Positions 1 to 53,411 of a stretch of 64,000 nt of DNA are shown one piece after another. This DNA comes from Chiloscyllium plagiosum (Eukaryota). The notes beneath the pieces are model-generated. The model was given only the letters and a program-made list of their open reading frames with translations, had not been told where the DNA came from and searched no databases. The stretch spans positions 95,905,041-95,969,040 of the forward strand of contig NC_057710.1 in the NCBI RefSeq assembly GCF_004010195.1, written 5' to 3'. The translations under genes and the position numbers were made by a program. Each line of letters opens with the position of its first letter. The stretch's first letter is position 1.

Positions 1-195
1 CCCTCACCTTGACCTCCTTCCACCTATCGCATTTCCAAAGCCCCTCCCCTAAGTCCCTCCTCCCTACCTTTTATCTTAGTCTGCTGGACACACTTTCCTC
101 ATTCCTGAAGAAGGGCTCATGCCCGAAACGACGATTCTCCTGCTCCTTGGATGCTGCCTGACCTGCTGCGCTTTTCCAGCAACACATTTTCAGCT
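1..195 (+). mobile_element. Penelope-like element terminal repeat fragment, family A (runs off window start)
   Basis: Same sequence recurs at 31685-31801 and 53223-53411 (gcccgaaacg.cgattctcctgctcc..ggatgctgcctg.cctgctg); contains a hammerhead motif. Confidence 0.7.
101..136 (+). ncRNA. Minimal hammerhead ribozyme motif, family A, cleavage triplet mutated
   Basis: attc-CTGAAGA(105-111)-A-GGGC-tcat-GCCC-GAAA(125-128)-CGAC-gatt. The sister copy at 31691 reads GAAACGTC, so GUC has become GAC here. Confidence 0.6.
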
Positions 196-227
196 GCTTA
201 ACAAATGCCCCTAAAATCAATCCAGTA

Positions 228-388
228 TAGAGGAACCTCGATTATCCGGAGAGTATTTCATTCGATTAATCGAATTCTGGATAATCGGATGCCAGATAAC
301 ATTGTTTAGCCAAGTATCGGGACCTTGTGATCTTGCCAGACAATCCGATATTCAGATAATTGAATGCTGGATAATCGAGGTTCCTCTG
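228..388. mobile_element. Tc1/mariner (Tigger-like) MITE
   Basis: TIRs tagaggaacctcgattatcc / ggataatcgaggttcctctg, TA on both flanks, internal sub-terminal palindromes. Confidence 0.85.
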
Positions 389-535
389 TACACATTCCAG
401 AAATTCATCCTCCACAGCATTAATGCTGACTTGGTTAACCTAATTCAAATGCACATGAAGTCACCCATTATTATTGCATACCCCACATTATATACATTTC
501 TAATTTTCTGATTTATACCATACCCAATATTGATA

Positions 536-890
536 CAGCAAACTTTGTTTTAACTGGCACCTTATGAACTAGCATTCTCAATCAAACCGGCAAAGTAAAC
601 CTAAATAACGGAAGTTGACTGTATTAGTGCAATCTCCACAATGGCCCAAGTAGTCAGTTGAGGGAGTGAGTGAGAAGACTCTTTGCCGGTAAGTTTTATT
701 TAAGGCGAAGTTGCTTTATTATTTCAGTGAATTATATTGTAAATAAAGTATAAGTGTGTATGCAAGCTGCATCATGTTTCTGTTATTTGGTGTATGTTTT
801 ATATTATGTTGGCCTTTTGATCAACCAGAATATTTGATCAACCAGCACAGGTCCTGATCCCACAGATGCCAGTTAGCAAAATGTTTGCTG
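536..890. mobile_element. Tc1/mariner (Tigger-like) MITE, older
   Basis: Imperfect TIRs cagcaaactttgttttaactggca / tgccagttagcaaaatgtttgctg flanked by TA. Confidence 0.75.
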
Positions 891-2760
891 TACCACTGGA
901 GTTTGTTTATTCCCCCCTCAGTATTTCTTGACTCCACCCTTGCTGATTTTGCATTTTGACCTTTTGATCAAAGATTCTTTCCTCTGGTGTATTACCTTAA
1001 CCCTTAGTAGGATTGTTACCCTATTTTGTTTTTTGTAGCATGAATTAAGTACAATTAGATGTTACAATATGTTTGACTATTCAGAATCCTATTTTGAGAA
1101 AATGTTTGACTGCATTCATTGCTAGGATTGTAAAGCAGTATATCCAGTATCAACATTCTTATCTGGTTATAAATATAAATCATAAAAAAACAGACATCAG
1201 CAGTCTGCTGGGCTCAGTACATTCTGCAAGGTCAGACAGGTTTTTTTAAACAGCAGATGGTGATGGCACATTTTCACCAGGCTGAGAACCAGAACACAGG
1301 AAGGGTATCAGTTTTAGTCCAGCCACACAATTCATTGATGTGGGGCAGGACAACATGTTCACTATCATCCATTCCTCTGGATGGACAAGCTGTACCTATT
1401 GAACAAGATGACTTCAATCATAGTGATATGTTCATTCACTGAAAGGTAAAGCAACGTAATGATTCACTTCAGGCTGCCCTTATCAAGTCTGCCATTGAAA
1501 AGATTGGTAAAGCATTTGGGGTATACTTGGGGAAGATGTGAATGTTCCATTTGGATCACAAGTGCATATCAATGTTGCAGTCCTGAATTGTGGCATTATG
1601 TAAATAGCCATTGGGAGGTATGAAGTCATCTCTAGAAGATGCCAGCAGTAGACTTGATATCTGGCACCAACTGACGCTACTAAACTCAAATAGTATTGAT
1701 AGATACAAAGTTGTCACATTATAACGAAGACTTGTAAAGCTGTGTATGACACTAGTTCCAGAAGGAGGGAGATTAACTTATGATAAGATTTTCAAAAAGT
1801 AATGGGGGAGAAGGTCCTGACCTAGCTGTGTATTAATGGTTAGTAGCATGTTTCAGTACAACTTTACTTGTGTTTCCTTGCAGCTTTGATCCCAAAGTTA
1901 TCTATGCATCTTGATTTCTCCATGAGGTTAGAGCAAAATTGGTGCTGAAAAATTGAGTCAGATTTACTGATCATCCCTGACTGTCAAAAGAGGATGGTGT
2001 TTTTCCTACTGCCAGCTCTAAGTCTGCTAGACTGAAATATTGCTGCCACAGACTGCAGTGCCTGACTCAAGGATGGGCATCTGCAGCAGAATTTTGGCTA
2101 AGTGCCAACGATAGCATTAAAATGCACTTGCTGCCTTGGAAAAGGATTGCGGATAAATAATGCAGCAGTTATTTATGAATTCAGTATGAGTGCCTTTTAC
2201 TTTAGAGAAAATGTCAAAAGTGATCTTTTTTTAAATGTCCATATGGTTAGTTTATAAATGTATTATTTTATGCTGTAACTTTCCAATTTCACATGTACAT
2301 AATACATTTCCGATTTGCATGAAATCTGACATTACTTTTTTAAGGTATACAAAATGCAAGGCTGTAATTGGATTGAATGGTATCATGGGTTTTGGTTGAT
2401 TTCAGTGCATTACAGTCACCAGTGACACTTTGCGAGTGGATGGCTCATTTAGTGAGTCAAGCAGTCTGTCATTATTTTATCAAGTTCATTGTTCTCACTT
2501 TTGCTTCAAAAATTGTTACATTTTCCTGTGCATTATAGCATCTGGTTTCTTCTTTAAAAAATCCATAATTGTATTTAAGCTGCATAATGTACAATATTAA
2601 GTTACTTCAAACTATAATCCGAACAGTCACAATTGATTCTGTTAGAATGAAAGATCATTAACTGATGAGAGTTTCGTCATTCAGTGGTGATATATGTACA
2701 GACACGTTCATATTAAAATTGGCAGAATTATGTAGGAATACGGAGCTATCTCTTCCAAAA

Positions 2761-3030
2761 AGGCGGCATGGTGGCTCAGTGGTTAGCACTGCTACCTCAC
2801 TACGCCAGGGACCTGGATTTGATTTCACGTTCAGGTGATTGTCCATATGGACTTTGCATATTCTCCCTGTATTTGCATGTGATTCCTTCCACAGTCGGAT
2901 GATGTGCAGGCTAGGTGGACTAGCCATGGAAAATGCAGTGGTGGGTGCACGTGGGATGCTCTTCAGAGGTCAGGATGGACTCAGTGGGCTGAAAGGCCTG
3001 CTTCCAAACTGTTGAGAGTCAATGATTGTA
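2761..3030 (+). mobile_element. tRNA-derived SINE (shark HE1/V-SINE-like)
   Basis: A-box head ggtggctcagtggttagcactgct..ctcac, V-SINE-like core, CR1-like tail. Homologous to 39835-40140, 51553-51853 and 54689-55018. Confidence 0.8.
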
Positions 3031-5796
3031 AAAGAGTCTTCTGAACAGTGATGTCAGTGAAGTACGATGTTATGGAAAGTTAAACTCCTGTCTGTCACTA
3101 CACGCCAAAGGAAAGCATTTGGCCAAGAGAAATGGATTCCAGTTTACTAACTGTCAGTAATGGTGTGCAGGAATATGGAGAAATGGCAAGAAATTGGCAC
3201 TAAGTAACAGACCTGGTGCAAGCACTATGGGGCGAATGGCTCCTTTCCGTGCCTGTATTATTCTGTATTAAAATATGGTCACAAACAAAACAAATCTTAA
3301 ATGTCCACTATTGATTAATTTTTGTTATTTTTAAAAAATCTGTACCAAATATTTTTGTACATGCTCCTTCTCACATTCATTGCAAAAGATGGAGAGAGAA
3401 GAACAGGCATTGTTTATATACTAGCAATAATCTCCCTTTCTGATCCTTTTGTATATGCTTGCTATTATGAAAATGAAGAATGGCGCCAAACCAATAATTG
3501 ACTTTACATCTTCTTTTAGTATTCCCAAAAGAATTGTGTAAAAATATAACTAAATCCAGCCTATGGAATCTGATTTGCAAAGGGGGAGAGTTCAGAGGTG
3601 GATGGACCAGACATTTCTTGTTGGTGATCAGCAGGGTATGGAAAAGCTGGGTTGGAGCAGGTGACTCCCTGTAGCTGGTGAAGTAGGGTTTGTCCTCTAT
3701 GTGGCAGCTGTGGTCACTGTCACATTGTGACAATTGCAAATCCTGAAATGCTGAGAGGAGAAAGCACTCATTCAGAAATCCTCTTTGAAACAAGTTTCTG
3801 TTCGTCAACTCTATACAAGTGTCAATCAGACAGAGCCATTTGTTGCATCAATAACACAGGTTCCGCCTCCATTCGGATCTCTTAATCTTACCTGAGTAAG
3901 CATATATATAATGGACAAAAAGTGATAGAATAATTTGCAAATTATTTCAAAATGTGTAAACAATCAAATTAATTTCTTAAAGAAAATAAATTCCGATACC
4001 TGACTGAAGATCTGAATTTCATCTTGACTCGGCTGAATGTAGATTTCTATTAATCTCAGCAAAGTGGGATCTCTGCCCATTAAATAGTAAAACGGCAGCT
4101 ATTTTCCTAAAAGTACAGAATCTTTATTGTAGATGTCAGCTACCAGCTGAATTAGTGACTGATAATTCATTTGCTGAAAAAGCATAGAGAAAGTTGGCTT
4201 AGTCTGGAATTCAAGACCTTAAGAGTATATTTTATCAAATATTTAGCCATTGTCAAGATGATCCTACCTTGAAGATAAACTAACTAACTTAAGGTCTTAT
4301 GTAGTAGCATATATCTCTTCTCTCTGTGTTCAAAATTTATATTAACTTTGTATTATTGAAACATGTATTTTAATGTTCCTCTTAAATAAAGTTGTCACTG
4401 TCTTTTTTGCAAGGTCAAGTTGTTTGTATTTGATAACGTCTCCTCTAATTTTTCATTTATGGGAAGCCTGGACAAGTTGGACTGAAGAGTCTGCTTCCAT
4501 GCTGTATGACTCTGACTCTAAAACTCAAACTTGGACCAAGTGTACTTGTGCAATGGAATTGGAGAGTATACTCAATCACTGCTTCTATTACAAAGTAACT
4601 TGAGAATGAGGCAAGGAAAACTGCTGTTCACTAAGTGACTATATACCTTAAACATCAACTGTACTCCTGGACTACACTGGCAGCCACTTCAAGCAAAAAT
4701 GTATCCCTACTTTTCAGAAAAATGGGCTAAATGAAAACAGGCTGCCTATTTGTAAATGTAGTATGTTACAAATTGGCCTTGTGAGTTCTATTCAGTGAAA
4801 CATCGAGCCCTATTTGTAGCTTTCACTTTATTCTATGAATTTTTTGTAATGGAAGTTTGTTTTGCTAAGAGCTCCATAATTGAAAGATCAGGAGTTGTGA
4901 TGTTAAGCTTGTGATTATGAACTGATATAATATGGGAATGCTGATCCCCGAAATGGCCAAACTTGACAATATTGAATAAAGCTGTAAATTAAATTTTGTA
5001 GTTTGTGGACAGACATATCACCATCTCCTTGTTAAATATTGAGTGAGAAATTGCTGTTAAAGGAACAACCAGACTACTGGACTAGCTGTTAATTGAGTGT
5101 AACTGATACAGCAACTCGAAGTGAGGAGAAGATGCAAACTTAGATGTGAATGCTGAAAGGGATCTTTCCAAGTTGGCCTACTCCACCATTTGCAAAGATC
5201 CAACTTTGCAGAATGCCATTTGTTGTCTGCCTCAGCTTTGCATGCATTGGATGGCATGAAGCTGCTGTATTTGTAGCTGCTGTATTTATATGGTAGGTAT
5301 GAATGAAACCAGCCACAAATATTGAGGGTAGCTATGAGCACAAGAACCTTTTAACAAACTGAAAATTGCTGCCAATCAACCTCTGACGCTAAGCATTAAC
5401 TGTTACGAGCGTGGAACCCCATCCCGTCAGGTTTTGAATTTTTTGGTAAATTTTAAAATGTTTTCCCTTTTCCTTTCTCTCCTCTTTATGCAGTCTTTTC
5501 ATCCCTTGTTTTAGTTTATTTGCTTCTCTTTCAATTACTGATTTGACATGGAATTAATTTTCTTTAAGTCATCGTCTTCTCTATCCTTCCTGTATTTAGT
5601 CCCCAGTCCTTAGTTCCCACTAGTTGAGAAGATGTTCTATCGGAGGCCCCAACTGCTCTATTTCCCTTGGTGTGCTATGACAGGCCTGGAATTTCAGCTG
5701 CTGGTGATGCGAAGGAAAACTCGTAGCATTCTCAATGGCTTACTCTCCTACAACAAACTCTGGCCCACTGGCTTTGACAAATACCCACTTGATGGC

Positions 5797-6170
5797 TAAG
5801 TTAAAAATAACACAACACCAGGTTATAGTCCAACAGATTTAATTGGAAGCACACTAGCTTTCGGAGCGACGCTCCTTTTAAAAAAAAGGTTTTGTGATTT
5901 ACACATGAAAGAAGTGAAACTATCACTGTATTGTAACAGATGAAAAGCTTAACAGACAATCAATTTTTCAATATATAATTTCAGTTACATCACACTGCAA
6001 AGTTTTGCTATAAATTCTGTGTTACGATCGAGCCCTCCACTATCACCTGATGAAGGAGCGTCGCTCCAAAAGCTAGTGTGTTCCAATTAAACCTGTTGGA
6101 CTATAACCTGGTGTTGTGTGATTTTTAACTTTGTACACCCCAGTCCAACACCGGCATTTCTAAATCATGA
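5797..6170. mobile_element. Penelope-like element end, family B, inverted (fold-back) insertion
   Basis: 12-bp TSD ccacttgatggc (5785-5796, 6171-6182). 5798-5877 is the reverse complement of about 6053-6131. Homologous to 42526-42793. Confidence 0.8.
6044..6078 (+). ncRNA. Minimal type-I hammerhead ribozyme, family B, G12 mutated
   Basis: CAC-CTGATGA-A-GGAGC-gtc-GCTCC-AAAA-GCTA-GTG. Stem I CAC/GTG, perfect stem II, AGCT palindrome; GAAA has become AAAA (the inverted arm keeps GAAA). Confidence 0.75.
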
Positions 6171-6639
6171 CCACTTGATGGCAGTATTGTGCAATTGCAA
6201 CCTCTCAGCTATTTTATACCACCTGTGATGTTTGGTTTTAACGTATTTTTGAAGTAGCAATATCTGCAGTGAATCCTTTTAGTTCCATATTGATTCTTCC
6301 AGCTATTCCCTTCAGTTCCCTTTATCTTTAGCAGCAACTTCAATATTACAACAATGTATTCTCAGCTTTGGTAAGACACTAAAGTCAGAATGTAGACATA
6401 TGGGAGACTTTTTTGAAACTCAAATTTGTAACAAAAGCACTTTTTTGCTTGCATTTAAATAAGAATATGGCAGTTCCCCAGCTCTTAGTCTCTTTGCAGA
6501 CTGAATGCATTAGACACAACTAAACTTTGGAAGTCTGCAACTACCTGAGCACTTCTTCACTCTCCAATCCATTCCAGTACCAGTATGATGCTTAGTACCA
6601 ACGAATGTGGAGTCCAAAAGAAGTGGTTGTTAGAGGCCA

Positions 6640-10395: not shown

Positions 10396-10542
10396 TGTTT
10401 TGCTGTACGTTCCCTGGGTTGGGTAGAAATGGCAGAGGAAGACCTGGCACCTGGAAAAAGCAGTGTTGCTGTGAATAACTGCATCCGGCAGCTCTCCTAT
10501 TGTAAAAATGACATCAGGGACACAGTTGGAATTTGGGGAGAG
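10396..10542 (+). CDS. APBB2: APBB2 (FE65-like 1) internal coding exon, start of PTB1/PID1 domain, phase 0-0, 147 nt
   Basis: ttgcag|TGT acceptor and GAG|gtaaga donor. Translates [49 protein letters not shown], matching the vertebrate APBB2 PTB1 sequence as I recall it. Confidence 0.96.
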
Positions 10543-11105: not shown

Positions 11106-11233
11106 GGTAAAGACATGTACCTCATACTAGAAAATAATATGTTGAACCTAATTGACCCCATGGATCGCACTGTTCTTCATTCTCAACCAATTGTCAGCAT
11201 TCGTGTGTGGGGTGTAGGTCGAGACAATGGGCG
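11106..11233 (+). CDS. APBB2: APBB2 coding exon, PTB1, phase 0-2, 128 nt
   Basis: tttcag|GGT acceptor and GGG CG|gtaagt donor. Translates GKDMYLILENNMLNLIDPMDRTVLHSQPIVSIRVWGVGRDNG(R), in frame with the previous exon. Confidence 0.96.
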
Positions 11234-13499: not shown

Positions 13500-14260
13500 A
13501 CTCCAAAGCTGAAAATTGAAACAGCTGAAAGCTTGGCTACCAGACGTAAAATGGTATGTATTGGGAATGTACAACAACCCGGCATTGGAGGAATGCAGAT
13601 TTCTGAGGATTGTAGGGCAAAAGGAGGTTACAGAAATGCAGAGAACTGAGGCCATGCAAGGATTTGAAATAATGAGAATTTTAACGTTTAAGCACTGTCT
13701 GACTGCAGGCCAATATAGGTCAGCAAGTACAGGATGATTAGTGGACTGAATTAGTTGAGAGTTTAGTTTGCTTCAAGTTTATGGCAAGTGAAAAGTAGTC
13801 GAATAGACAAGTCTGGAGGTGAAAATGCACTTCAGGATTTTAACAGCACTGAGCTTAGAAATAGGTAGAGTAGGGTGATTTTTTGGAGGTGAAAGTAGGG
13901 TAGGCAGTCTGAATAATGACACAGGGATGTAATTGGAAACTCATTTAGCATCAAATAGGCTAAGGTTGTAAAGTGCGGCTCAGCTTTGGATAGTGGCTAA
14001 GGAGTAAACTTGGTGGGAAGAGCTGAAGATAATGGTTTGGTATTGCAAGTGTTTAGTTAGATATAATTTGTCCTTCCAGAACTGGATGTCAGGCCAGTAA
14101 TAAGTCAAATCGGAGATGATTTAGAAAAGATGGTGCACTAGAGCCAGATTTTGTCAGAAAACTTATGGAAACTTGTAAGATTTTGGATGTTGCAACTAAG
14201 GCTGCAAATCGATAGGAGAGGACTAAGAGGAAATACTTGTATCAGTTATCCCTTCGAAGG
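13500..14260 (-). mobile_element. Decayed L2-like LINE fragment
   Basis: Purine-rich, with L2-like tracts; resembles the reverse complement of 57850-58930. Confidence 0.45.
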
Positions 14261-15009
14261 AGTGCTGCACTTAAAGCAGTAAGGCTTGCTTTATCCCCTG
14301 ATTGTAAGTAGGCATGACAAATATAAAGAACTGAAATGTTTTCTTCATTGAAATTTGAAAGCCAAATTCCATTATCCTGCTATGTTTGCTTTCCTGGGGA
14401 GCAAATGCCAGTTTAATGAAGCACATTGAGGTGTGATATATAAAGAGTGCAATGTTGACCCAGGAGTGCCTTAAGTATAACATCAAAAAGCTTTTATCGG
14501 TTCCCCTCCTGTGGCATGATGAATTTTTTTTCTCTCACAGTGTATTAGACGAGCTTATAGTTTATCTCAGCAGCTAGATTAGCAAGCGTGCTGATCAACA
14601 TTTTGTCTTCCTGTCAAATCTGCCACTGGACATCAAACATATTCTAAGGATATTAGTGATGCCTGAAATAACTCCAGTAACCCTGAGTAGTTGAACCATT
14701 CTTAAATATGTCTCCAATATAAAAGGATATTTGCAGGTGGGGAAAATTAATTTGACTCCCTTGGTGCCTGATATGTAGGAATTATGCAAAGTAAAATTCT
14801 TTTGTGCAGATTCGTTTGTTTTGGTATAACAGATAATGCTGTTAAATATATAACATATCTTGGGGAACCTAATAGGCAGATGCTTTTCAATTATGCAATA
14901 AATTGGTATTACACTTGCTGTGAAGCCAGATATACTGGTCACTCTTAATCTGGAAGTTATTTTTAAATTAAGATCATCATATAGTTATGAATTTTATTTT
15001 TCTGAAGTT

Positions 15010-17540
15010 GGAACAGACATAGCAATTACAGAAACATGGCTCAGGGATGGGCATGACTGGCAGCTTAATGTTCCAGGTTACAAATGCTACAGGAAAGATA
15101 GAAAGGGAGGCAAGAGAGGAGGGGGAGTGGCATTTTTGATAAGGGATAACATTACAGCTGAGCTGAGGGAGGATATTCCCGGAAATACATCCAGGGAAGT
15201 TATTTGGGTGGAACTGAGAAATAAGAAAGGGATGATCACCTTATTGGGATTGCATTATAGACCCCCCAATAGTCAGAGGGAAACTGAGAAACAAACTTAT
15301 AAGGAGATCTCAGCTATCTGTAAGAATAATAGGGTGGTTATAGTAGGGGATATTAACTTTCCAAACATAGACTGGGACTGCCATAGTGTTAAAGGTTTAA
15401 ATGGAGAGGAATTTCTTAAGTGTGTACAAGACAATTTTCTGATTCAGTATGTGGATGTACCTACGAGAGAAGGTGCAAAACTTGACCTACTCTNNNNNNN
15501 NNNNNNNNNNNNNNNNNNNNNNNNNNNNNNNNNNNNNNNNNNNNNNNNNNNNNNNNNNNNNNNNNNNNNNNNNNNNNNNNNNNNNNNNNNNNNNNNNNNN
15601 NNNNNNNNNNNNNNNNNNNNNNNNNNNNNNNNNNNNNNNNNNNNNNNGGGAATGCTGGATGACTAAAGAAATTGAAGGTTTGGTTAAGAAAAAGAAGGAA
15701 GCATATGTAAAGTATAGACAGGGTAGATCGAGTGAATCCTTAGAAGAGTATAAAGGAAGTAGGAGTATATTTAAGAGGGAAATCAGGGGGCAAAAAGGAA
15801 ACATGAGATAGCTTTAGCAAACAGAATTAAGGAGAATACAAAGAGTTTTTACAAATGCATTAAGGATAAAAGGGTAACTAGAGAGAGAATAGGGCCCCTC
15901 AAAGATCAGCAAGGCAGTCTTTATGTGGAGCCGCAGACAATGGGGGAGATACTAAATGAATATTTTGCATCAGTATTTACTGTGGAAAAGGATATGGAAG
16001 ATATAGACTGCAGGGAAATAGATGGTGACATCTTGCAAAATGTCCATATTACAGAGAAGGAAGTGCTGGATGTCTTGAAACGGGTAAAGGTGGATAAGTC
16101 TCCAGGACCTGATCAGGTGTACCCTGGAACTCTGAGGGAAGCTAGAGAAGTGATTGCTGGGCCTCTTGCTGAGATATTTGTATCATCGATAGTCACAGGT
16201 GAGGTGCTGGAGGTTGGCTAACGTGGTGCCACTGTTTAAGAAGGGTGGTAAGGACAAGCCAGGGAACTATAGACCAGTGAGCCTGACGTCGGTGGTGAGC
16301 AAGTTGTTGGAGGGAATCCTGAGAGACAGGATGTACATGTATTTGGAAAGGCAAGGACTGATTAGGGATAGTCAACATGGCTTTGTGTGTGGGAAATCAT
16401 GTCTCACAAACTCAGAGAGAGTGATTGAGTTTTTTGAGGGAGTAACAAAGAGGATTGATGAGGGTAGAGCAGTAGATGTGATCTATATGAACTTCTGTAA
16501 GGCCTTTGACAAGGTTCCCCATGGGAGATTGATTAGCAAGATTAGATCTCGTGGAATATAGGGAGAACTATCCATTTGGATACAGAACTGGCTCAAAGGT
16601 AGAAGACAGAGGGTGGTGGTGGAGGGTTATTTTTCGGACTGGAGGCCTGTGACCAGTGGGGTGCCACGAGGATTGGTGCTGGGTCCTCTACATTTTGTCA
16701 TTTACATAAATGATTTGGATGCGAGCATAAGAGATACAGTTACTAACTTTGTAGATGATACCAAAATTGGACAGTGAAGAGGGTTACCTCAGATTACAAC
16801 AGGATCTGGACCAGATGGGCCAATGGGCTGAGAAGTGGCAGATGAAGTTGCAGGTTCATAGCTCCTTGAAAGTGGAGTTGCAGGTAGATAGGATAGTGAA
16901 GAAGGCGTTTGGTATGCTTTCCTTTATTGGTCAGAGTATTGAGTACAGGAGTTGGGAGGTCATGTTGCAGCTGTACAGGTCATTGGTTAGGCCACTGTTG
17001 GAATATTGCGTGCAATTCTGGCCTTCCTATCAGAAAGATGTTGTGAAACTTGAAAGGGTTCAGAAAAGATTTACAAGGATGCTGCCAGGGTTGGAGAATT
17101 TGAGCGAGAGGGAGAGGCTAAACAGGGTGGAGCTGTTTTCCCTGGACTGTCAGAGGCTGAGGGGTGACCTTATAGAGGTTTACAAAATTATGAGGGGCAT
17201 GGATAGGGTAAATAGGCAAAGTCTTTTCCCTGGGGTCACGGAGTCCAGAACTAGAGGGCATGGATTTAGGGTGAGAGGGGAAAGATATAAAAGAGACCTA
17301 TAGGGCAAGGTTTTCACACAGAGGATGGTACGTGTATGGAATGAGATGCCAGAGGAAGTGGTGGAGGTTGGTATAATTGCAACATTTAAGAGGCATATGG
17401 ATGGATATATGATTAGGAAGGGTTTGGAGGGATATGGGCCGGGTGCTGGCAGGTGGGACTAGATTGGGTTGGGATATCTGGTCAGCATGGATGGGTTGGA
17501 CTGAAGGGTCTGTTTCCATGCTGTACGTCTCTATGACTCT
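15010..17540 (+). mobile_element. CR1-clade LINE (HER1-like), 5'-truncated ORF2 with APE endonuclease and reverse transcriptase, broken by stops, frameshifts and deletions
   Basis: ORF fragments IAITETWL, HYRPP, VGDINFPNIDW (APE) and KSPGPD, PGNYRPVSLTS, SQHGF, KAFDKVPH, LVRPLLEYCVQFW (RT); 3' tail ctctatgactct. Confidence 0.95.
15494..15647. other. Assembly gap (154 N) inside the CR1 LINE
   Basis: Run of N. Confidence 0.99.
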
Positions 17541-19289
17541 AAATGCTTGCATGAAGGGCTGACATTTACACCTTTTAATCTATACACTGCAGGTTAGTGA
17601 GTACAGCTGTGTAGTCTAGGCCTCTCTTTACATGTTTCTTTCTAGTCTGATCTCTTCTGCTCTGCTGATGTCAGAGTAAGGTCATCATTTGCATATTCCA
17701 TTATACCTCACCCTACCTCCTACCTCTGGTTCTCTCCCACTTGATTTATGGTAATTCCAGTAATTTATTTTTAATTATTTGCATGGTTATTATCATTTAC
17801 ATCATTATCATAAACCCCTCTTCCACAAAGTCCAGGTTTCTCAGACTGAAATGATTTGGGACTCACAACTGATTTAGTTTCTTGATTTTCACACAAGAGT
17901 AATCGTTCTTTACCAAGCCTGGAATTGTTATACCATTCTATAAAGTATTCATTATATTTATTGGATATCTTTGATCCACATCCTGTGATAATTGTACTCA
18001 GTCTCACTTGGCCCATTGGAGACACTGTACCAGAATAAGTAAATTGTTTGAGTTCGCAGGTATTCATGTTTACAAACCAATCCTAGTCACCTAGGTTCAT
18101 TCATCCTTTTGTAAAATGGCCATTCTCTAAGTGTACAGCAGGATGTGATACAAAACTGTAAGCCCTATTTTCATGCTACTTTTTAAAAATAGGTTTAAAA
18201 TGAACAAATACTTCATTTATGTACTTGCACCAAGTGAAATACTGAAGACCGTGTGAGCATTTTTAGAAAGCATTTCTCATTAGGATCTAATCCGAATTTA
18301 TAAGACCTTAAGAAATAGGAGCACAATAGACCTTTCATCTATCAAGGTTTGCTCCACTGTTTGATAAGATGAAGGAGCAATCTGAGGGTGAGGGCAAGAA
18401 TTTTCAATTAGATAGAATTAAATACAGGGAAGCATCAAAACCTAAATGCAGAGACTAATGGAGGTGATGGGTGAGTGTAAGTTAGTGCTCTATTATAAAA
18501 TCTCACAATATAATGGGTGCTCGATGGCTCGATGTGCGTGTGCTAGCTCTTTGGAAGAGTTACCCCATTGGTCTTGGTCCTGATTTCAGCAGGAAACACC
18601 TGTCCTAGGCTGTATACTAGCATGTCTAATTTTTAAATGCGGAAAGATCAATTGTGAAAAAGACACTCCAGACTATTCCCACCAACCCTTCTCCCAACAA
18701 GGTAACTCAAGGTACATGAAAACAAAGGATTTGACGCCATTGGTGGGACTCTACTTGTGATTACTAATAGGGTCTATATAGTATTTCATTTTAGTTGAGT
18801 ACCTCACCTTTTCTGTGTCCATTTTGAAGTGCAGAAACTAAGGTTGGATAAAAGTCATTGTATTAATGTATGTTCATAGGGTACCAACACTGTAGTGTTT
18901 CTGGTATTCAGGCTAAAAGCAGTGGGCAATGAGGTGGAAGACTTTAGAAATACAACTACTCCATCTCTTTAAAAAAACATTGAAGATGAATATTTTATAA
19001 CAATGCAGTTGTAATGGAGTTTTTTGAAAGTAAGACCTTCAGTTGCGTAGCTATTATCCAACACTTTTTGCCTAGGCTAATCAAAAAACACATCTTTGTC
19101 AGTTGCTTTGGAAGTTCTACTCTAAAGGGAATCAACAAAAATGTATAGTTTTTATGAAAATCAGAACATTTTAAGTGTTTGCCGTTAGAGAATGATCACA
19201 TTGCATCCAGTTTATTAAATGTTTATAATTATCTGTTCAGCTGTCCAGATCCAGAAAAAATGTAGTCCCAGCTCAAGGCTTTAAGTTTA

Positions 19290-31140: not shown

Positions 31141-31684
31141 GAAGATTCGCATTGTGTTCCAATTCCGACTGTAGACATTCCTGAAAGCTTGATCATGTCA
31201 TATCTTGATCAAATGACATGGGATCCCAGCATTTGTATGCAAGTGTTTGGATTTTTCTTCACACTTGGATCCTAGTTAGTTGAGAATCTTTCTATAATGG
31301 TTTTGTGTCAATTATGTAATATGTTCCAAGAATCAAAAGACTGGAAGTGGACAGATGAATAGTGGAGACCAATAAATTACAGTACAGGAGCAGACCACGA
31401 GATTACTGGTGTTAGTGCTCTCTCCTTTAACCACAAGAACCATTTTACATTTCGCTTCTCAAATATTTTCAAAGCAAATTATTGGCAATTATACATTTGC
31501 TGGTTAGTTACTTTGTTCATTCAGCAAAATGTTATAACCAAGAATTTTTCGGAATTATACATGATAGTTCACAGTAGTTGTACAAAATGTTTGTTGTTTA
31601 TAACTCTGAGTATAATAACAACCTATCATTTCACTCAAGCACCTATCCCATTCCCTAAACCTAAATTGTCAGCTTTTAAATTGG

Positions 31685-31801
31685 CTTGTGCCCGAAACGT
31701 CGATTCTCCTGCTCCTCGGATGTTGCCTGGCCTGCTGTGTTTTTCCAACACCACATTTTTCAACTCTGACACTCCAGCATCTGCAGTCCTCACTTTCTCC
31801 T
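31685..31801 (+). mobile_element. Penelope-like end, family A, short insertion truncated inside hammerhead stem II
   Basis: 14-bp TSD agcttttaaattgg (31671-31684, 31802-31815); begins cttgtgcccGAAACGTCgatt. Confidence 0.8.
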
Positions 31802-32321
31802 AGCTTTTAAATTGGTAATTGTTTAAGCTGCCAAAAAAGTGCTAACCATTCCATCACAGTCAATCACAAAGTTGCTTCTTGGAGAATGTTAAATGCATTC
31901 TTGCCATATTTTTACAAAAAAGAAATGTTGACATGTTCAGTGTTAAGGCATCAATCTGATTTGTTTCCTCCTGTGTAGGATTAAGATTTAACTTGTCTTT
32001 TTTTTAAAAAAAAGTTCCCCCTGTGCCCCCCCCGCCCAAACTTCCAAAAATGTTTGTTTTGGCTTGTATTGTTTCAAAGTGACAACTGTCAGATGCAAAG
32101 TAGGAGTGAAAGCAATAATGAGTGATTCTGTGAGGTTTATTAATAAATAAAGATCACTTTGAGATTGTCCAAGGTAAAAAGGATGCTTGACAGAAAAGCT
32201 GTTAGATTCTTATTATTGTGTGCGCTTTCATTCTGGATGATAGTGTTTCTGGCCTTTAGGGAAATCTCAACTCTTGCAATTCTAGGGTGTAGGTTTGCTC
32301 GCTGAGCTGTAGGTTTGATGT

Positions 32322-32361
32322 CCATATGTTTCATTACCTCGCTAGGTAACATCATCAGTGG
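32322..32361 (-). ncRNA. Minimal hammerhead ribozyme, family C, minus-strand arm
   Basis: Reverse complement reads CCA-CTGATGA-T-GTTACC-tagcga-GGTAAT-GAAA-CATA-TGG. Confidence 0.7.
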
Positions 32362-33150
32362 TGACCTCCAAGTGAAGCGAAGCTGTTGTCTCCTGCTTTC
32401 TATTTATATCTTTCTCCTGGATGGGGTTCCTGAGGTTTGTGGTGATGTCATTTCCTGTTCGTTTTCTGAGGGGTTGATAGATGGCATCTAGATCTATGTG
32501 TTTGTTTATGGCGTTGTGGTTGGAGTGCCAGGCCTCTAGGAATTCTCTGGCATGTCTTTGCTAAGCCTGTTCCAGGTTAGATGTGTTGTCCCAGTCAAAA
32601 TGGTGGGTTTTTTTCCTCCGTTTGTAGGGCTACGAGGGAGAGAGGGTCGTGTCTTTTTGTGGTTAGCTGGTGTTCATGTATCCTGGTGGCTAACTTTCTT
32701 CTTTTTTGTCCTACGTAGTGTTTGTGGCAGTCCTTGCAAGGAATTTTGTAGATGATGTTGGTTTTGTCCATGTGTTGTACTGGGTCTTTTAAGTGTTAGT
32801 TTTTCTTTGAGAGTGTTGGTGGGTTTGTGTGCTACTAGGATTCCGAGGGGTCTCAGTAGTCTGCCTGTCATTTCTGAAACTTCTTTGGTGTATGGTAAGG
32901 TGGTAACACCATTTCGACTGGGACAACACATCTATCCTGGGACAGGCTAAGCAAAGACATGCCAGAGAATTCCTAGAGGCCTGGCACTCCAACCACAACG
33001 CCATAAACAAACACATAGATCTAGATACCATCTATCAACCCCTCAGAAAACGAACAGGAAATGACATCACCACAAACCCCAGGAACCCCATCCAGGAGAA
33101 AGATATAAATAGAAAGCAGGAGACAACAGCTTCGCTTCACTTGGAGGTCG

Positions 33151-33190
33151 CCACTGATGATGTTACCTAGCCAGGTAATGAAACATCTGG
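33151..33190 (+). ncRNA. Minimal hammerhead ribozyme, family C, plus-strand arm
   Basis: CCA-CTGATGA-T-GTTACC-tagcca-GGTAAT-GAAA-CATC-TGG. Stem I CCA/TGG, 6-bp stem II with a G-U first pair, AUC triplet. Confidence 0.75.
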
Positions 33191-33963
33191 ATATCAAACC
33201 TACAGCTCAGCGAGCAAACCTACACCCTAAACCTCAACCTGAGCTACAAACCTTCACAAATCTTGCAATTCTGTTTAATTTCTCATGACAAGAAAGCATG
33301 ATGAAAGAAGCTGCTGCATTTCTATTAAGTTTTATATAATCTTAGGATGCTCTAATGAGCATTCCAATAAATGAAGTACTTTTGAAGTGTTATACAGTAG
33401 GAAATGTGGCAGCCAATTTGCACGTAGAAAAGTCTTAGACAGTAAATGGGGAGACAGACAGATGTTTTATTAATTCTGAGGTATCTGCATTGGCCAAGAC
33501 ACTCTGGGAACTCCACTGTTGTTCAAAGAATGTTTTGCATCATCTGAGGAAGGCAGACAAAGCCTGACTGAAAAGCCAACACCCCTCAAAATGCAGCTCT
33601 CCCACAGTAGTGCCATTTATTAGCCAATTTATGATGCAGAAAAGGGGCTTGAGCCCACAACCTACACTCATAATTTCAATCCATTCCTTTCTGATGCTGC
33701 AAACTCAATCAGGAGTAGCTTCTGGAGCTTAAAGTTGACTTTTGATACCTTTACACAAATGACCATCTCTCCTGTAAAAGCTTAAACAGATGTGCTCCAA
33801 AAGATTATCAGTCTTGTTTCAGATAACGTTAGGAAGGGAGTTCAACAATTTTGATCCATTGACCTTGAAGAAATGGCAATATACTTCCAAGTGAGGATAG
33901 TGTGAGAGTTGGCGAACTTGCAGGCAGTGGTGGTGCTCCCATGTATCTGATGAGCTTATACTG

Positions 33964-34849: not shown

Positions 34850-35500
34850 TGGAGATGGCATATTTGAAAGGTGCTCTTGAAGGAGCTTTAGTGAATTATT
34901 GCAGTGTATTTTGTTGATGGTACTCAGCTGACACTTTGCGGCAGTGATGAAGGGAATGAATGTTGAAGACAATGGATGTCATGCCAATCAAGTGGGCTAT
35001 GATATCCTGGATGATTTGGAGACCCTTAAATGATGTTGTCACAGCTCCCATCCAACTAAGTGGACAGTATTTCATCACATTCCTGCCATATGCTTTGTAG
35101 ATAGATGGTGGCCAGGCATTGCGGAAACAGGAAGTGAGGTACATGCCAATAGACTTCTTAGTCTTGGACCTGCTGTTGTAGTTACACTAAGTATATGCTG
35201 GTCAAGTTCAGTTTTTGTTCGGTGAAACCTCAAGGATGTTAATAGTGGGGATTCAGTAATGATGACATCATTGAATGTCAAAGGCTGATGATTAGATTGT
35301 CTCTTGTTGGAGAAGGTCATTGTCTGGCACTTCTGTGGCACGAATGTTACTTGCCACTTCTGAAGAAGGGTCACTGGACTTGAAACATTAACTCTGCTAT
35401 CTCTCCACAGATGCTGCCAGACATACTGAGTTTCTCTAGCAATTTTTATTTTTGTTTCTTGCCATTTGTCGATCTAATCTTGTAAATTGTCCATGGACCA
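34850..35500 (-). mobile_element. Decayed LINE RT fragment (CR1/L2 group)
   Basis: Minus-strand KWQVTFVPQKCQTMTFSNKR and IYKA.GRNVMKYCPLSWMGA. Confidence 0.7.
35357..35457 (+). mobile_element. Penelope-like end, family D, nested in the LINE fragment, with hammerhead motif
   Basis: 7-bp duplication cttgcca (35350-35356, 35458-35464). CTGAAGA(35360)-A-GGGTC-actg-GACTT-GAAA-CATT-AACT. Homologous to 36808-36900 and 38229-38335. Confidence 0.7.
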
Positions 35501-36807
35501 CTTCCGTAGCTAAGTCGTTGCTAATTACCATAGCAATGAACAAGTTTAATCAATTAATAATATATCTTAATATTTAATTAATTGAGACTAAAGGTATAAA
35601 TGTCAGTCTAATTCACTTAATTAATAACAAATCAGGACCAGCAACTGTACCAAATACCATCGTCATTGATTTAATCCTTTAATGTAAAAGATTACATGGA
35701 AGAACACAGTAAGCCTCTCAATGTGGAGGGATAGATCATTGAAGAGAATTTCAAACAAAAGGGAAGAGTAACAGAAAGAACGTGTTTGAATAGCATCTGT
35801 TGAAATAATTGGTTTGTCAGTATTTTGCCTAAAAACTTTATTAGACCTTGTTACCCCGCCCTTTTCCTTTATATTGGAAGTGTTGCTAATAACGCATATG
35901 TACGGATGGAGTCCCTTTTAATTCAGTTTGAAAAGATGGAGTATAAAATGAAATTAGAAGCTGTGGTGACCTTGTTCTATTTTTCTGAAATGAAGAATAG
36001 CAGTTACTAGTGATTGCTTAATAGCTCAAACATATTTGTGAAAAGTTTCTATACCTTTGTCTCGAATCAAATGCTTAAGATGTTTACTGTAACAGACAGT
36101 AGGGTCAGTGTAGACTCAATGGGCTGAATAGCCGCTATTGCACTGTAGAGATTGTATGGGAGAGATTTGAGCCACAAAATTTGGCTTCTAAGTGCTACTA
36201 GTGTTGGTTTTGTGGTAAAGTTGTGAGCTGTATAACTCTGAGACTGCTGCATCACGGCCATGTTTGGAAGGCCATTAGTGCAAACAGGTTGCACAAGTGC
36301 TAAAACACACAAGGACAAAAATTAGGAATAGAAGGTATGAAGGCCCTCTTCACATGTTTTCTTAAACATTCTCAGCTGGACGTGTTCAGCACTCTCTCCC
36401 CGCCTCCCCCCCCCCCCCCCATGCTAACTATTTAATGGCAAAAACATAGGGCATCAGATGAGAGGCTCTTGGATTTCATGTACTGGTGTAGAGTTGCTGG
36501 AAGGATTATGTTCAGTGTTTTTGGAAACTATTAAGGTTTTGGAGTGAGAAAAAAACATTGCTGGACTTTTACAAGTAATGCAGAACACTGAAGGCCAACT
36601 CAGCAGAGCAGTGTTTGCAAATAGAGACTTTATTGCTTCTTGCATGATGACAAACTACAGCACAGGCAACAAAGGAGGGAAGCTGTTGAGAGAAAGGAGG
36701 TACACTCTCAATGGAAGGGAGTGCCAACCCAGAGTCTTCAGAGAGCATTTTTCTTAACTCTGTATCAGCCAGGAGCAATATCTGAGGTAAGGAAGATTCA
36801 CCAAGTC

Positions 36808-37190
36808 ACAAAAACAGAAATTGCTGGAAAAACTCAACAAATCTATGGACAGAAATCAGAATTAAACTTTTGAGTGTAGTGACCCTTCTTCAAAACTGAT
36901 GGTAACTCAGAAAATGTTTGTGTGGGGAATGGGGTAAGAAGTAAATGATAGGTGGAGATAGAGCCCATAAAGAGAGAAAAGCAGTTGGACAGACAAGGAG
37001 TGGATAACAGTCAGCCTAGGACAATGAATAGCTGCTAATGGGGGACTTTTAATGGCTAACAATGGATTATGTAGTAGCAAACCATATGCTAGCAAGATCT
37101 GATGTGTGGGGGAAGGCCTGGGCATGGGGAAGTTGCTCAAGCCCTAAACCTGTTGAACTTTATTGAGTCCGAAAGGTTGTGGAGTACCCA
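36808..37190 (-). mobile_element. Penelope-like 3' fragment, family D, with degenerate hammerhead and C-terminal coding remnant
   Basis: Minus-strand LGTPQPFGLN (PLE GIY-YIG C-terminal LgtlqPxGLN motif) followed by a 3' region with ttgaagaagggtcactacactcaaaa. Confidence 0.65.
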
Positions 37191-38085
37191 ATCTGAGCCA
37201 GTCCCATTTACCAGCATTTGGCCCACATCCTTCTAAACCTTTATTAGTCATGTGCCCATCCCGATACCTTTTAAATATTGTAATTGTGCCCACTTCCTCT
37301 GACAGCTCATTCCATACACATACCACCCTCTGCATGAAACATTTACTCCTCAGGTCCTTTTAAATCTTTCCCCTCTCACCTTAAACCTATGCCCTTCAGT
37401 TTTGGACTCACCCATCCTAGGAAAAAGATCTTGTCTATTCATCCTATCCATGCCCCTCATGATTTTATAAACTTCCATAGGGTCACCTCTCAGACTCTGA
37501 CGCTCCAGGGAAAATAGCCTCAGCCTATTCAGCCTCTCCCTATAACACAAACCGTCCAGTCCCAGCAACATCCTTGTAAATCTTTTCTGCATCCTCTGAA
37601 GTTTAGCAACATCCTTCCTGTAGAAGGGCAATCAGAGTTGTACGCAGTTCTCTAAAAGTGGCCTCACTAATGTCCTGTGCAGCCGCAAATGACATCCCAA
37701 CACCTATAATCAATGTTCTGACCAATGAAGGCAAGCATTCCAAACACTGCCTTCACCACACTATCTACCTGCAACTCCACTTCCAAGGAACTATGCAGCT
37801 GCAGCCCCAGGCCTCTTTTATTTGCCAACACTTCCCAGAGCCCAACCATTAACTATACAAGTCCAGCCCAGGTTTGCCTTACCAAAATGCAACACCTCCC
37901 ATTTATCTAAATTAAACTCCATCTGCTATTCCTTGGCCCACTGGCCCATCTGATCAAGGTAATACTCTGAGATAACTTTGTTCACTGTCCACTATACCAC
38001 CAATTTTAGTGTCATCTGCAAACTTACTATACCTCCTATATTCATATCAAAATCATTGATATAAGTGATGAAATACAGTGGACCC
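37191..38085 (-). mobile_element. CR1 LINE 3' fragment, same family as 15010-17540
   Basis: Minus-strand YRKDVAKLQRMQKRFTRML..LFSLERQSLRGD. Confidence 0.92.
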
Positions 38086-38228
38086 AATGTGAAAGTCTTT
38101 TTCAGGAACAGACTATTACCATTAATAAAGACTCAATGATCTCTGCCTATACCGTACCTCAGGTTTATTGCTTTGCCTCTTTGTGGTACAGAGTGCATGT
38201 CAGTTGGAGACCTTGATGATTTCACTCT

Positions 38229-38380
38229 GTAACAAAAATAGACATTATTAGGAAAGCTGAGCAGGTCTGGTAGCATCTGTGGAGAGAAATTAGAGTTAAC
38301 ATTTCGGGTTGAGTGACCTTCCATAGAATTGGTTCTGTTTTTCTTTCTGATTTACAGCATCTGCAGTTCTTTCCATTTTG
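38229..38380 (-). mobile_element. Penelope-like end, family D, degenerate
   Basis: Reverse complement ctatggaaggtcactcaacccgaaatgttaactctaatttctctccacagatgct matches 35357-35457. Confidence 0.6.
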
Positions 38381-39834: not shown

Positions 39835-40140
39835 CTTAGAATCCCTACAATTCAAGTAGAAGTCATTCAATTCTACACAGCCCCTCCAACCCAAACCTTC
39901 TCCCCATAACCCCTCATGGTTTTATCCTCATGGTTAATTACCTAACCTCCACATCCCTGGACACTACAGGGAAGTTAGCATGGGCAATCCATCTAACCTG
40001 CACATCTTTGGATTGTGGGAGGAAATCCACACAGAGAGAAATACAGACTCTACACATACAGTCACTCAAGATTGAAATCGAACCTGGGCCCCTGGGGTTG
40101 TGAGGCAGTAGTGCTAACCACTGAGCCAATGTGCTGCCCA
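39835..40140 (-). mobile_element. tRNA-derived SINE (HE1/V-SINE-like)
   Basis: Reverse complement head tggctcagtggttagcactactgcctcac plus a B-box ggttcgatt. Confidence 0.85.
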
Positions 40141-42525: not shown

Positions 42526-42793
42526 CATGATTTGGAGATGCCGGTGTTGGACTGGAGTGTATAAAGTTAAAAATCACACAACACCAGGTTATAGTCCAAC
42601 AGGTTTAATTGGAAGCACTAGCTTTCGGACCGCCGCTCCTTCATCAGGTAGTTGTGGAGGACACAATTGTAAGACACAGAATTTATAGCAAAAGTTTACA
42701 GTGTGATGTAACTGAAATTATGCATTGAAAAATACCTTGATTGTTTGCTGAGTCTTGCATCAGTTCGATTGCCATGATAGTTTCACTTCTTTT
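42526..42793 (-). mobile_element. Penelope-like end, family B
   Basis: Reverse complement of about 5905-6170 with scattered differences. Confidence 0.8.
42616..42650 (-). ncRNA. Minimal type-I hammerhead ribozyme, family B, catalytic core intact
   Basis: Reverse complement TAC-CTGATGA-A-GGAGC-ggc-GGTCC-GAAA-GCTA-GTG. All core nucleotides present, one stem II mismatch, AGCT palindrome, CUA triplet. Confidence 0.8.
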
Positions 42794-47544: not shown

Positions 47545-47710
47545 CTGCTCTGTCAATAGAGAAACAACAGGTGGTGGTTTAACTGAGGGCCACCATGCCT
47601 TGGGTGTGGTTGAGGAGTTGGAACTTTCATGGTAACCTCAGCCTGTACGGAATAAAACTCACATTGTTGTTGTCCACAAGTCAACCATGCAGCCAACTGC
47701 GCTGGCTGAA
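47545..47710 (-). mobile_element. tRNA-derived SINE, second family
   Basis: Homologous to 52690-52892 (minus) and 63912-64000 (plus): gctcagttggctgg head, gaggttaccatgaa body. Confidence 0.65.
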
Positions 47711-47744
47711 TCCCGTAGAATGGAAACAATATTATGGGAGCAAT

Positions 47745-51552: not shown

Positions 51553-51853
51553 TATAGAATCATTGAACCCCTACAGTATGGAAGCAGGCCACACAGCCTA
51601 CCAGGTCTACACCAACCCTCCGAAGAACATCCTCCCCAGATCCTATCCCTGTAACCCTGTATTTCCCATGGCCAATCCACCGAACCTGCACATCTTTGGA
51701 CTGTGGAAGAAAACTGGGGAACCTGGAGAAGACCCATGCAGACACGGGGAGAATGGGGAAAGTCCACACAGACAGTCACCCGAAGCTCAAATCAAACCTG
51801 GGTCCCTGGTGCTGTGAGGCAGCAGTTCTAACCATGGGTCACTGTGCCACCCC
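51553..51853 (-). mobile_element. tRNA-derived SINE (HE1/V-SINE-like)
   Basis: Reverse complement of the family seen at 54689-55018. Confidence 0.88.
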
Positions 51854-52689
51854 AAACTAAAGGTTCTTCAACCTGTAAAAAAAAAAGTTCAGTGCATTCC
51901 CAATAAGACAAATAAACTACGGACGCAAACTAATGTTCAAACCAACATTACAAAGGCACATTTACAAAATTACCACAGTTGGATTCCATGCTGTTATCAC
52001 AGTTTGAAAAGACAAACAGAAAGGAAGAAGTAGCTCTTGTAGGAAAGGATGACATAAGCACAATAGTGAAAAAGTCTTGGCTTAGAAGATCAGATGAGGA
52101 GGAATAGCAAGCACCAGAAAACACTGGTCAAAATAGCTCATAGACTCCCGTGCAGCATTTATACCACTGGTTGAATACTATGCAAGAATTTATTGGAGTA
52201 TATAACAGGCCATATAATAATTGAAGGAGACATTAATCTTCATGTAGATTGGACCAATCAAATTGGCAAATGTAGTCTGGAGGATGAATTCATAATGTTA
52301 TCGTGATAGTTTCCAGGAGCAATATGTTATGGAGCTGGGGATGAATATGGTGTTGTGCAATAAACCACAGTTAATTAGTAATCTCATAGTAAACATTCCA
52401 CTGGGGAATAGTGATCATAGTACAGGTGAATCCGATATTAAAGTTGCAAGTTACATCTGCTTCTCCCAATGAAAAGTTTTAAAGGAGGGAAGACAAAGCT
52501 GGGAAAATAAATAAACCATATGGCAATAAATAGACAGTGGGAAGCATAAACCATTCATCATGTTCAGCAAATTATGTCCTATTAAAAAGAAAATCATGAG
52601 AGATCTATTGATGTTACCCAGGAAATTTATAGCAGTATTACACCAAAAGAAAAGGTGTTATAATTCCTGTACCTTTTAAAAGTAAAGTT

Positions 52690-52892
52690 GCTATAGTCCT
52701 AGAAGGTCATAGTGCTGCCCTCTCATTAAAGAGAGAGAAGACTAGTGGTGGTTTACCCTGAGGGTCACCTTGCCTGAGGCAAGGGCTACAGTTGAGAAAG
52801 TGGGAGCTTCCTGGTAACCTAATCTGGTACGGGCATTAAATCCTGCTGTTGGCATCATGCAGTGCAAACCGATCGTCCAGCCAACTGAGTCA
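52690..52892 (-). mobile_element. tRNA-derived SINE, second family
   Basis: Homologous to 47545-47710 and 63912-64000. Confidence 0.65.
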
Positions 52893-53222
52893 GCAAGGAA
52901 TGTATGCTTTCCAAAGTACTTCGGGCATTGCAAATGTTTTATAATGTTGTGAAGAATAGTATGTCAGTCAGGGGACTGGGTATGTGTTTTAGAAATCAGA
53001 GTCAGCAAGATGTCAGTTAAAAAGGAAACGAACAATAGAATGAGAATAAAAACAGTTTGGAAGGGCTTACACAAGTATATAAGTAGCTAAACCTTATGTT
53101 GATGCCCACAGAGGCAGACACAGGTTAAGTTATCATGAGGATTGTCTTGAACAGAGACCATCACAGAATAAGTCGCAAGTGATAGAAATTAATAACCCAG
53201 CAGCTACATGAAGAAATTAAAC

Positions 53223-53411
53223 TGAGAAAGTGAGGACTGGAGATCAGAGTCAAGAGTGTGGTGCTGGAAAAGCACAGCAGGTCAGGCAGCATCCAAGGAG
53301 CAGCAGAATCGGCATTTCATCATGAAGGGCTTATGCCCGAAATGTTGATTTGCCTGCTCCTCAGATGCTGCCTGGCCTGCTATGCTTTTCCAGCACCCAC
53401 ACTCTAGACAG
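53223..53411. mobile_element. Penelope-like end, family A, fold-back insertion
   Basis: 14-bp TSD tgaagaaattaaac (53209-53222, 53412-53425). 53253-53318 is inverted at 53339-53405, and the loop is the hammerhead stem II (gggcttatgccc). Confidence 0.8.

Follow-up and report, generated by a model that had tools for sequence, protein, structure and literature searches.

Minimal hammerhead ribozymes of type-I topology are known from Penelope-like elements (PLEs), and in fishes, the coelacanth, and Xenopus each genome has been described as containing several consensus families that covary, for the most part as single motifs in truncated PLEs (Cervera and De la Pena 2014, PMC4209133). Cleavage by PLE hammerheads is weak and needs dimers or the element protein (the latter in Frangieh et al. 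2024, PMC11167929), and their function has been called unclear (Craig et al. 2021, 10.1101/2021.04.23.441226). In PAc, a Poseidon element of Anolis carolinensis, the open reading frame (ORF) starts at stem II, 26 nucleotides (nt) before the cut, reverse transcription begins in an AC-rich stem-loop, insertion proceeds from uncleaved RNA, and in vitro insertion does not require cleavage (Frangieh et al. 2024, PMC11167929). Retrozymes and PLEs have also been surveyed, and retrozymes reported, in one chondrichthyan genome (10.64898/2026.07.22.740005). Here, we analyzed a stretch of 64,000 nt from the shark Chiloscyllium plagiosum (NC_057710.1, positions 95,905,041 to 95,969,040; hereafter the window), in which an initial annotation had seen at least four hammerhead families, A to D, in the introns of one gene. 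Very probably, the motifs lie in terminal pieces of very abundant retroelements that carry minimal type-I hammerheads; these pieces, shown to be Penelope-like for family C and likely so for A, D, and B, inserted one by one into introns of an APBB-family gene, were later mutated, and are likely inert.

Hammerhead motifs of the published kind occur above chance

The motifs are genuine and agree with the minimal hammerhead published for PLEs. Their common layout reads CUGANGA, one extra nt, stem II, GAAA, 3 nt, H, and stem I, the extra nt before stem II being A in families A, B, and D and U in C. This unpaired position (A9/10.1), omitted from the layout as first drawn, is present in the 6 arms with an intact CUGANGA and in the decayed arms at 36890 and 53327, and a descriptor without it recovers 1 of the 11 coordinates listed in the initial annotation. 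All 11 hold recognizable family members; a twelfth arm, on the minus strand at 53318, had not been listed. Like the motifs of PMC4209133, those of the shark combine type-I topology, no real stem III, a palindrome at 15.1-16.1, the unpaired nt 9/10.1, and G10.1-C11.1, and they form several families per genome, mostly of single motifs, with opposite-strand pairs 100-700 bp apart. Compared to the 7-8 bp of the schistosome families in that paper, stem II has 4-5 bp in A, B, and D; stem I has 2-4 bp here, its pairs differing by family and being weakest in A. The layout thus fits the published one in every testable feature, which supports the identification as PLE-type minimal type-I hammerheads. 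They are not a novelty in kind, since PMC4209133 already reports several families per genome. The searched supplement of that paper has no shark row (its file 1 lay outside the search), and no paper on shark PLE hammerheads as such was found in a search that did not extend to Repbase, Dfam, and most subscription papers. The window holds real motifs of a known kind that are new shark members, in three lineages, decayed at this locus.

Ordinary repeats might contain such motifs by chance, and this would agree with an Rfam scan of the window that gave no hammerhead match up to E 5 and with a relaxed scan, permitting one core mismatch, that hardly exceeded chance (4 matches versus 1.4 in shuffles). 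Strict scans, however, beat the shuffles: the exact core with a stem II of at least 4 bp gave 6 matches, 4 of them in families, versus a mean of 0.25 (12 shuffles), the same core plus the minimal stem III gave 3 versus 0 (12 shuffles), and a second strict pattern gave 1 versus 0 (100 shuffles). Features outside the first descriptor match the published motif, and family-wide conservation tracks the catalytic core. In addition, 33 of 70 distinct metagenome variants with the same core have a pairing stem II (at least 4 bp), where 8 were expected and 500 shuffles reached a maximum of 17. Chance is hardly credible as an explanation for the family motifs, and by this excess of pairing variants the motif is widespread outside sharks; among the metagenome loci listed there were no shark-family copies (no blastn match).

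Three exact-core matches, at 13603, 43572, and 27430, were rejected as chance because they have no minimal stem III and belong to no repeat family, and per-family profile searches of the window gave no further copies (best other E 1.5 or worse). Four metagenome loci (L014, L034, L061, and L078) carry two same-core hammerheads on opposite strands, 70-340 nt apart, in a diverging arrangement like that of the shark window.

No arm in the window is fully intact

The recurring CUGANGA of the initial description is intact in half of the arms (105, 6047, 32358, 33154, 35360, and 42647); the six others are broken or truncated, the box being wholly or partly missing at 31690, 5860, 38320, and 53318. 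Six of the 12 arms start in or at the core. CUGANGA, GAAA, and UH boxes are all present at 42647, 33154, 32358, and 35360; each of the remaining 8 arms is broken or truncated in this respect. Five core checks (CUGANGA, GAAA, U16.1, palindromic stem III, and H17) were passed together only by 42647, which has every core base, is antisense to the host gene, and has one G.G mismatch in stem II; fully intact arms number 0 of 12. The core is broken at 105 by an A in place of U16.1, G12 has become A at 6047, both C3 and G12 are lost at 36890, and 53327 has a broken CUGA box and AUGU instead of the palindrome. At 35360, 33154, and 32358, ACAU replaces the palindrome and the 10.1-11.1 pair is G.U; this pair is G-C in 105, 53327, 36890, and all three B arms. 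The 15.1-16.1 palindrome is AGCU in 3/3 B arms and ACGU in 31690 and the family A majority, and the non-palindromic C and D arms of the window (ACAU, AUGU, AGUU) are one change away from ACGU. All 6 sense-strand arms carry a core defect.

Nine insertions belong to three lineages

The 12 arms make up 9 insertions (Table 1). Families A and D, initially listed among four unrelated families, align across core, stem II, and tail. In the 70 nt behind the core, 5 of the 9 A-D pairs were reached by 0/2000 shuffles and the other 4 by 3 to 40, compared with at least 52/2000 for each of the remaining 28 cross-family pairs. Judged by this alignment, A and D are homologous, and there are therefore three lineages (A+D, B, and C), not four. 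The stem II pair 10.4-11.4 is C-G in A, U-A in D, G-C in B, and A-U in C, and the stem I pair 2.1-1.1 is C-G in A and B, U-A in D, and A-U in C. A and D differ on both sides of each of these two pairs (C-G to U-A); as the two families are homologs, this is real covariation.

Exact target duplications of 12-14 bp were found for 4 of 8 tested insertions, compared with 1 of 150 random pairs; two D insertions have approximate ones, and none was found for 42526-42792 or 36800-37197. The splice-acceptor-like end of the copy at 31690 was rejected as such, its AG being part of the target duplication.

Family C retains endonuclease sequence and resembles PAc

The coding remnant of the long C arm has two frameshifts and one stop, and the arm lacks the tail. 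It matches the homolog P0003 in tblastn (E 2.7e-63), which upholds the GIY-YIG linkage proposed for this family; the Pfam GIY-YIG match on a 62-aa piece (E 0.041, 14.6 bits) is below the 22.6 cut-off. The two arms are 96.9% identical over 323 bp (10 differences), and their inversion, one-sided tail, and target duplication correspond to what has been described for PLEs. The copy breaks off below the reverse transcriptase (RT), and P0003 has the C-terminal part of an RT with YVDD. The linker lacks a cysteine motif in the translations of both the window copy and P0003, an absence that points to the Penelope/Poseidon clade. Of the protein relatives, 7/9 are from Hemiscyllium, Chiloscyllium, or Stegostoma.

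In the plus arm, the endonuclease frame runs through the catalytic core to a stop in loop 2 (33168-33170), and an ATG at 33160, made of A9, the extra U, and G10.1, opens a frame that continues to the element end. This predicted ATG stands where stem II begins, 28 nt ahead of the predicted cut, and the AC-rich stem-loop behind it has a z of -3.3 (0/200 shuffles). As in PAc (PMC11167929), the ORF would start at stem II with C3 and G8 before it, the cut would follow 28 nt (PAc 26) behind the start, an AC-rich stem-loop lies downstream, and two 3' end points delimit a tail, of 31 nt (PAc 30-40 nt). C differs from PAc in its ends, 70 and 101 nt past the predicted ATG (~111-118 nt in PAc), in the truncation and frameshifts of the copy, in having a start that is predicted, and in the stop of the preceding unit, which lies in loop 2. 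By analogy with PAc, we predict that the ribozyme-internal ATG is the C start codon.

Several annotated carpet-shark protein isoforms (P0001, P0002, P0004-P0006, and P0008) end in C endonuclease pieces, and P0005 also ends in antisense family A sequence; the family C and A pieces in them are either exonization or annotation chimeras. Paired with each other in the host pre-mRNA, the arms at 32284-33260 would give an RNA duplex of 323 bp with 97% matching, which on this pairing model is a candidate for adenosine-to-inosine editing and would also bury the sense ribozyme. At 33203 there is a loose end, with 30 RNA reads of a C-related subfamily that has another 3' stem II arm and an intact ACGU.

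Families A, D, and B are likely pieces of the same kind of element

On the minus strand of the old D copy, ~12 codons at 37197-37162 resemble the end of a Neptune-type GIY-YIG frame (9/12 residues identical, E 0.02-0.05). The A/D core spelling stands 86-112 nt behind GIY-YIG frames in 10 of the 116 metagenome loci listed, and these frames end in a T-x-x-P-x-G-L-N motif. As in the Neptune clade (10.1101/2021.04.23.441226), two of these frames have a Cys-rich linker, and D weakly matches their C-terminus on the right strand. Compared to Neptune-type loci, A and D have no linker or RT in the window and no DNA similarity, and the distance from endonuclease to ribozyme is ~270 nt in D, versus 86-112 nt in the metagenome loci. 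For B, we infer a PLE nature from four features, namely the motif, the diverging arms, the target duplication, and the position of its end, ~120 nt past the core.

The short A and D stubs and B might instead be separate non-autonomous elements, similar to short interspersed elements or to monomeric retrozymes, that were transcribed and mobilized on their own with the hammerhead at their head. This would account for the 95-120-nt stubs with their own target duplications, the many A and D copies that start at the front edge of the motif, the lack of a coding remnant of B in the window, and one contig with a head-to-tail A junction; animal retrozymes have been proposed as derivatives of the pseudo-long terminal repeats (pLTRs) of PLEs. 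The non-LTR retrozymes (10.64898/2026.07.22.740005) are likewise non-coding and pLTR-related, with a type-I hammerhead and many monomeric derivatives, but they are defined by tandem repeats with the hammerhead in consecutive units. Such direct tandems are absent from the window, where self-comparison found no head-to-tail neighbors, one such A joint occurring among the contigs listed. Moreover, the same families reach far upstream (A >104 nt, D ~300 nt, B >140 nt) with 5' ends that vary among copies, truncated and inverted copies are the usual output of autonomous PLEs, and a cleaved and religated monomer is not expected to start at the 5' strand of stem I. We therefore consider an origin from separate self-mobilized elements rather improbable.

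The shared A/D tail opens with an ATG at 151, 31720, 53365, 53292 (minus), 35411, and 38276 (minus), giving the same short peptide start in all six, and the predicted C frame begins with the same three residues. The A/D tail ATG may be the ORF start of the element. A conserved hairpin in this tail was rejected, as folding gives it no support (z 0.16 and 1.08); folding of the B tail was mixed (z -0.89 and -2.29). A second remnant resembling the end of a Neptune-type GIY-YIG frame (5.7 bits) lies at 54540-54690 and ~55020; a short interspersed repeat interrupts it, and no hammerhead family was found behind it.

Reads show a conserved core, high abundance, and a front edge

Genome contigs of two species and RNA reads were placed on positions 1-300 for family A, with a cut-off of 12% for variation among the rows listed. 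U16.1 accounts for 98.5% of the depth in X1 and is present in 635/650 and 985/1016 RNA reads; since the family keeps this base at ~98%, the defect of copy 105 is private. Motif variation was listed for N7, loop 2, and CpG positions (124, 125, and 130), and none for CUGA, G8-A9, the 5' arm of stem II, or A13-A15. Across family A, the catalytic core is conserved.

The summed depth was ~6 million over the A core in X1, 0.4-0.76 million over C, and 0.65 million over D, 4 to 6 orders of magnitude above single-copy DNA (7-15), although summed contig depth is not copy number and is inflated by overlapping short contigs, perhaps up to ~30-fold. At the insertion density of the window (9 in 64 kb, ~140 per Mb) and in a genome that we take to be some gigabases in size, at least 100,000 copies genome-wide are plausible. 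Both the depth over A, C, and D and the 9 insertions in 64 kb support the "very large reservoir" proposed initially; this material is mostly decayed sequence and not working ribozyme. For one window and with a different descriptor, the density looks above the 4,000 (coelacanth) and 9,000 (Xenopus) motifs of PMC4209133.

Depth steps up at 101, the first base of the 5' strand of stem I, by 1.65- to 1.9-fold in three DNA runs, 1.81-fold in X1, and 2.8-fold in the X21 RNA reads (earlier X21 bins 1.07-1.3). At this position, 325 and 310 contigs leave the A reference into heterogeneous flanks (agreement 0.31), and A fold-back joints connect 100/101 to 132-135. D has an edge at 35358 (2249 contigs, agreement 0.37), which is an indirect test as the reference has no upstream family sequence there. 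No cluster of ends at the cut site was listed for A or D, and the C reads showed no comparable front edge. The starting point of many A and D copies is thus the front edge of the ribozyme rather than its cut site, a pattern consistent with copying from uncleaved RNA; part of the step at 101 may come from subfamilies that differ in their upstream sequence. We tentatively raise the possibility, without favoring it, that in A and D the front edge is the 5' end of the copied RNA. The ribozyme would then remain uncut during retrotransposition and, instead of cutting, would mark a boundary and signal fold-back, with the inverted arm primed through stem I complementarity. A 5' end of the RNA or a fold-back at stem I would fit best, because stalling of the RT is expected at the 3' side of the structure and cleaved RNA would start behind H17.

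The host gene and the position of the copies

The first three exons in Table 1 are Pfam PTB/PID matches in order, and two also match the APBB1 PTB1 structure in PDB; by these domain matches the host is a plus-strand gene of the APBB/Fe65 family, presumably APBB2. A Pfam scan of the probable exon 62875-62962 gave no family match, and it is tentatively assigned via an APBB2 motif. The intron 11234-56121 (44.9 kb) holds 9 of the 12 arms, which agrees with the placement in introns of one gene. The other 3 arms are upstream of exon 10396, the preceding exon was not found within the window, and they would by extension also be intronic to the same APBB-family gene.

With 6 arms on the transcribed strand of a large intron, one may ask whether the host retained some copies as intronic ribozymes that cut APBB pre-mRNA, like the conserved amniote intronic hammerheads. 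Family A sequence does occur in RNA reads of the species (2860 of 12,955,460 records in run X21), but on both strands, and 95% of these reads continue into unlike sequence, which looks like dispersed copies within other transcripts; they show no pile-up of ends at the cut site, for which this library type is a weak test. In the host pre-mRNA, base pairing with an inverted partner is predicted for the sense arms of C, B (6047), and A (53327). The host transcript is unlikely to be cleaved, because all 6 sense arms are defective, these three are predicted to be paired to partners, and none has a direct neighbor for a dimer. Retention by the host for such a role is accordingly very improbable.

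The window has a GC content of 38% and one gap of 154 N. A truncated long interspersed nuclear element (LINE) with an AP-endonuclease domain (Pfam E 6.9e-10) spans this gap at 14902-17543, with related fragments at 4465, 37186-38086, 53970, and 62144, and a short interspersed repeat family has four copies (2762-3030, 39950-40134, 51555-51851, and 54687-54886).

Table 1. Hammerhead-bearing insertions and host exons in the window, with flanking target duplications.
Feature	Position	Strand	Description	Target duplication
C long arm	32284..32906	-	5'-truncated PLE: RT-endonuclease linker, GIY-YIG remnant, then motif (C3 at 32358, ACAU, G.U 10.1-11.1)	12 bp, 32272-32283 and 33261-33272 (whole C insertion)
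C inverted arm	32907..33260	+	endonuclease C-terminus, motif (C3 at 33154), AC-rich stem-loop, 31-nt one-sided tail	as above
A end piece	1..197	+	5' end outside window; motif 101-136, C3 at 105	
A stub	31685..31801	+	starts inside stem II, no CUGANGA; GAAA-CGU-C intact	14 bp, 31671-31684 and 31802-31815
A fold-back palindrome	53223..53411	.	minus arm from ~G12 (53318); plus arm with broken CUGA box, AUGU	14 bp, 53209-53222 and 53412-53425
D stub	35358..35452	+	starts at or 2 nt before C3 (35360); ACAU; two G.U pairs at stem II base	approximate, at 35345 and 35453
D old copy	36800..37197	-	C3 = U, G12 = A; LINE fragment cuts it off upstream	not found
D fold-back remnant	38231..38378	.	minus arm 38332-38231 starts inside core; plus-strand tail piece near 38340-38378	
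B composite, diverging arms	5797..6170	.	minus arm 5877-5797 starts inside core, no CUGANG; plus arm to 6170, C3 at 6047	12 bp, 5785-5796 and 6171-6182
B best-preserved copy	42526..42792	-	C3 at 42647, GAAA-GCU-A, one G.G in stem II	not found
Host exon, PTB1 first part, APBB/Fe65-family gene	10396..10542	+	Pfam PID E 8.4e-10; APBB1 structure 3d8d E 6.1e-20; AG/GT ends	
Host exon, PTB1 domain	11106..11233	+	Pfam PID E 1.1e-5; ends read off sequence	
Host exon, PTB1 end	56122..56236	+	Pfam PID E 4.9e-12; 3d8d E 5.1e-17	
Next host exon, probable	62875..62962	+	open frame between AG and GT	

Discussion

An origin of the motifs in terminal pieces of PLEs suggests the following course of events. In an active tandem element, the ribozyme would stand at the junction between the end of one unit and the start of the next. 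On the model of anole PAc in vitro, the element protein of the shark families would bind ~70-120 nt behind the ribozyme; after nicking genomic DNA, it would begin reverse transcription there on uncleaved RNA. Copying would then usually stop early or fold back, leaving the products seen in the window, namely 90-600-nt stubs, diverging inverted arms, and 12-14-bp target duplications. The source ribozyme, without a stem III of its own, would by analogy cut only as a dimer, via the ACGU or AGCU palindrome, and dimer cleavage would probably be aided by the element protein. Once inserted, the copies have decayed, and CpG positions were the first to change, including C11.1-G12 and the center of ACGU.

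Several observations weigh against this explanation or parts of it. No coding sequence in the window ties A or B to a PLE. The D match at 37197-37162 reaches 4.7 bits and was beaten in 2 of 20 shuffled windows, so the GIY-YIG linkage claimed for D as well as C is not firm; as strand and place are right, a link of D to Neptune-type GIY-YIG is plausible, and this weak tie extends to A through its homology with D. Stem I of A consists of 2 bp, a U.U mismatch, and one further pair. Within family A, no pair swap reached the 12% cut-off among the rows listed, so that covariation is seen between families only. A search for proteins beginning with the predicted C peptide, which is a weak test, found none. 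Finally, ACAU and the G.U pair occur in both C arms, and the rows listed do not include the majority of the family at these positions; either the source already had both, or the arms were homogenized.

With this locus, a motif class known since 2014 gains shark members, and the speed at which the copies decay becomes visible. Family C is a clean case in which a stop codon and a predicted start codon both fall within the ribozyme. With so many copies, this genome lends itself to testing if the front edge defines the template. Were the front-edge reading of A and D true, carpet sharks would hold on the order of 100,000 natural run-off products, from which the template of a PLE clade could be mapped.

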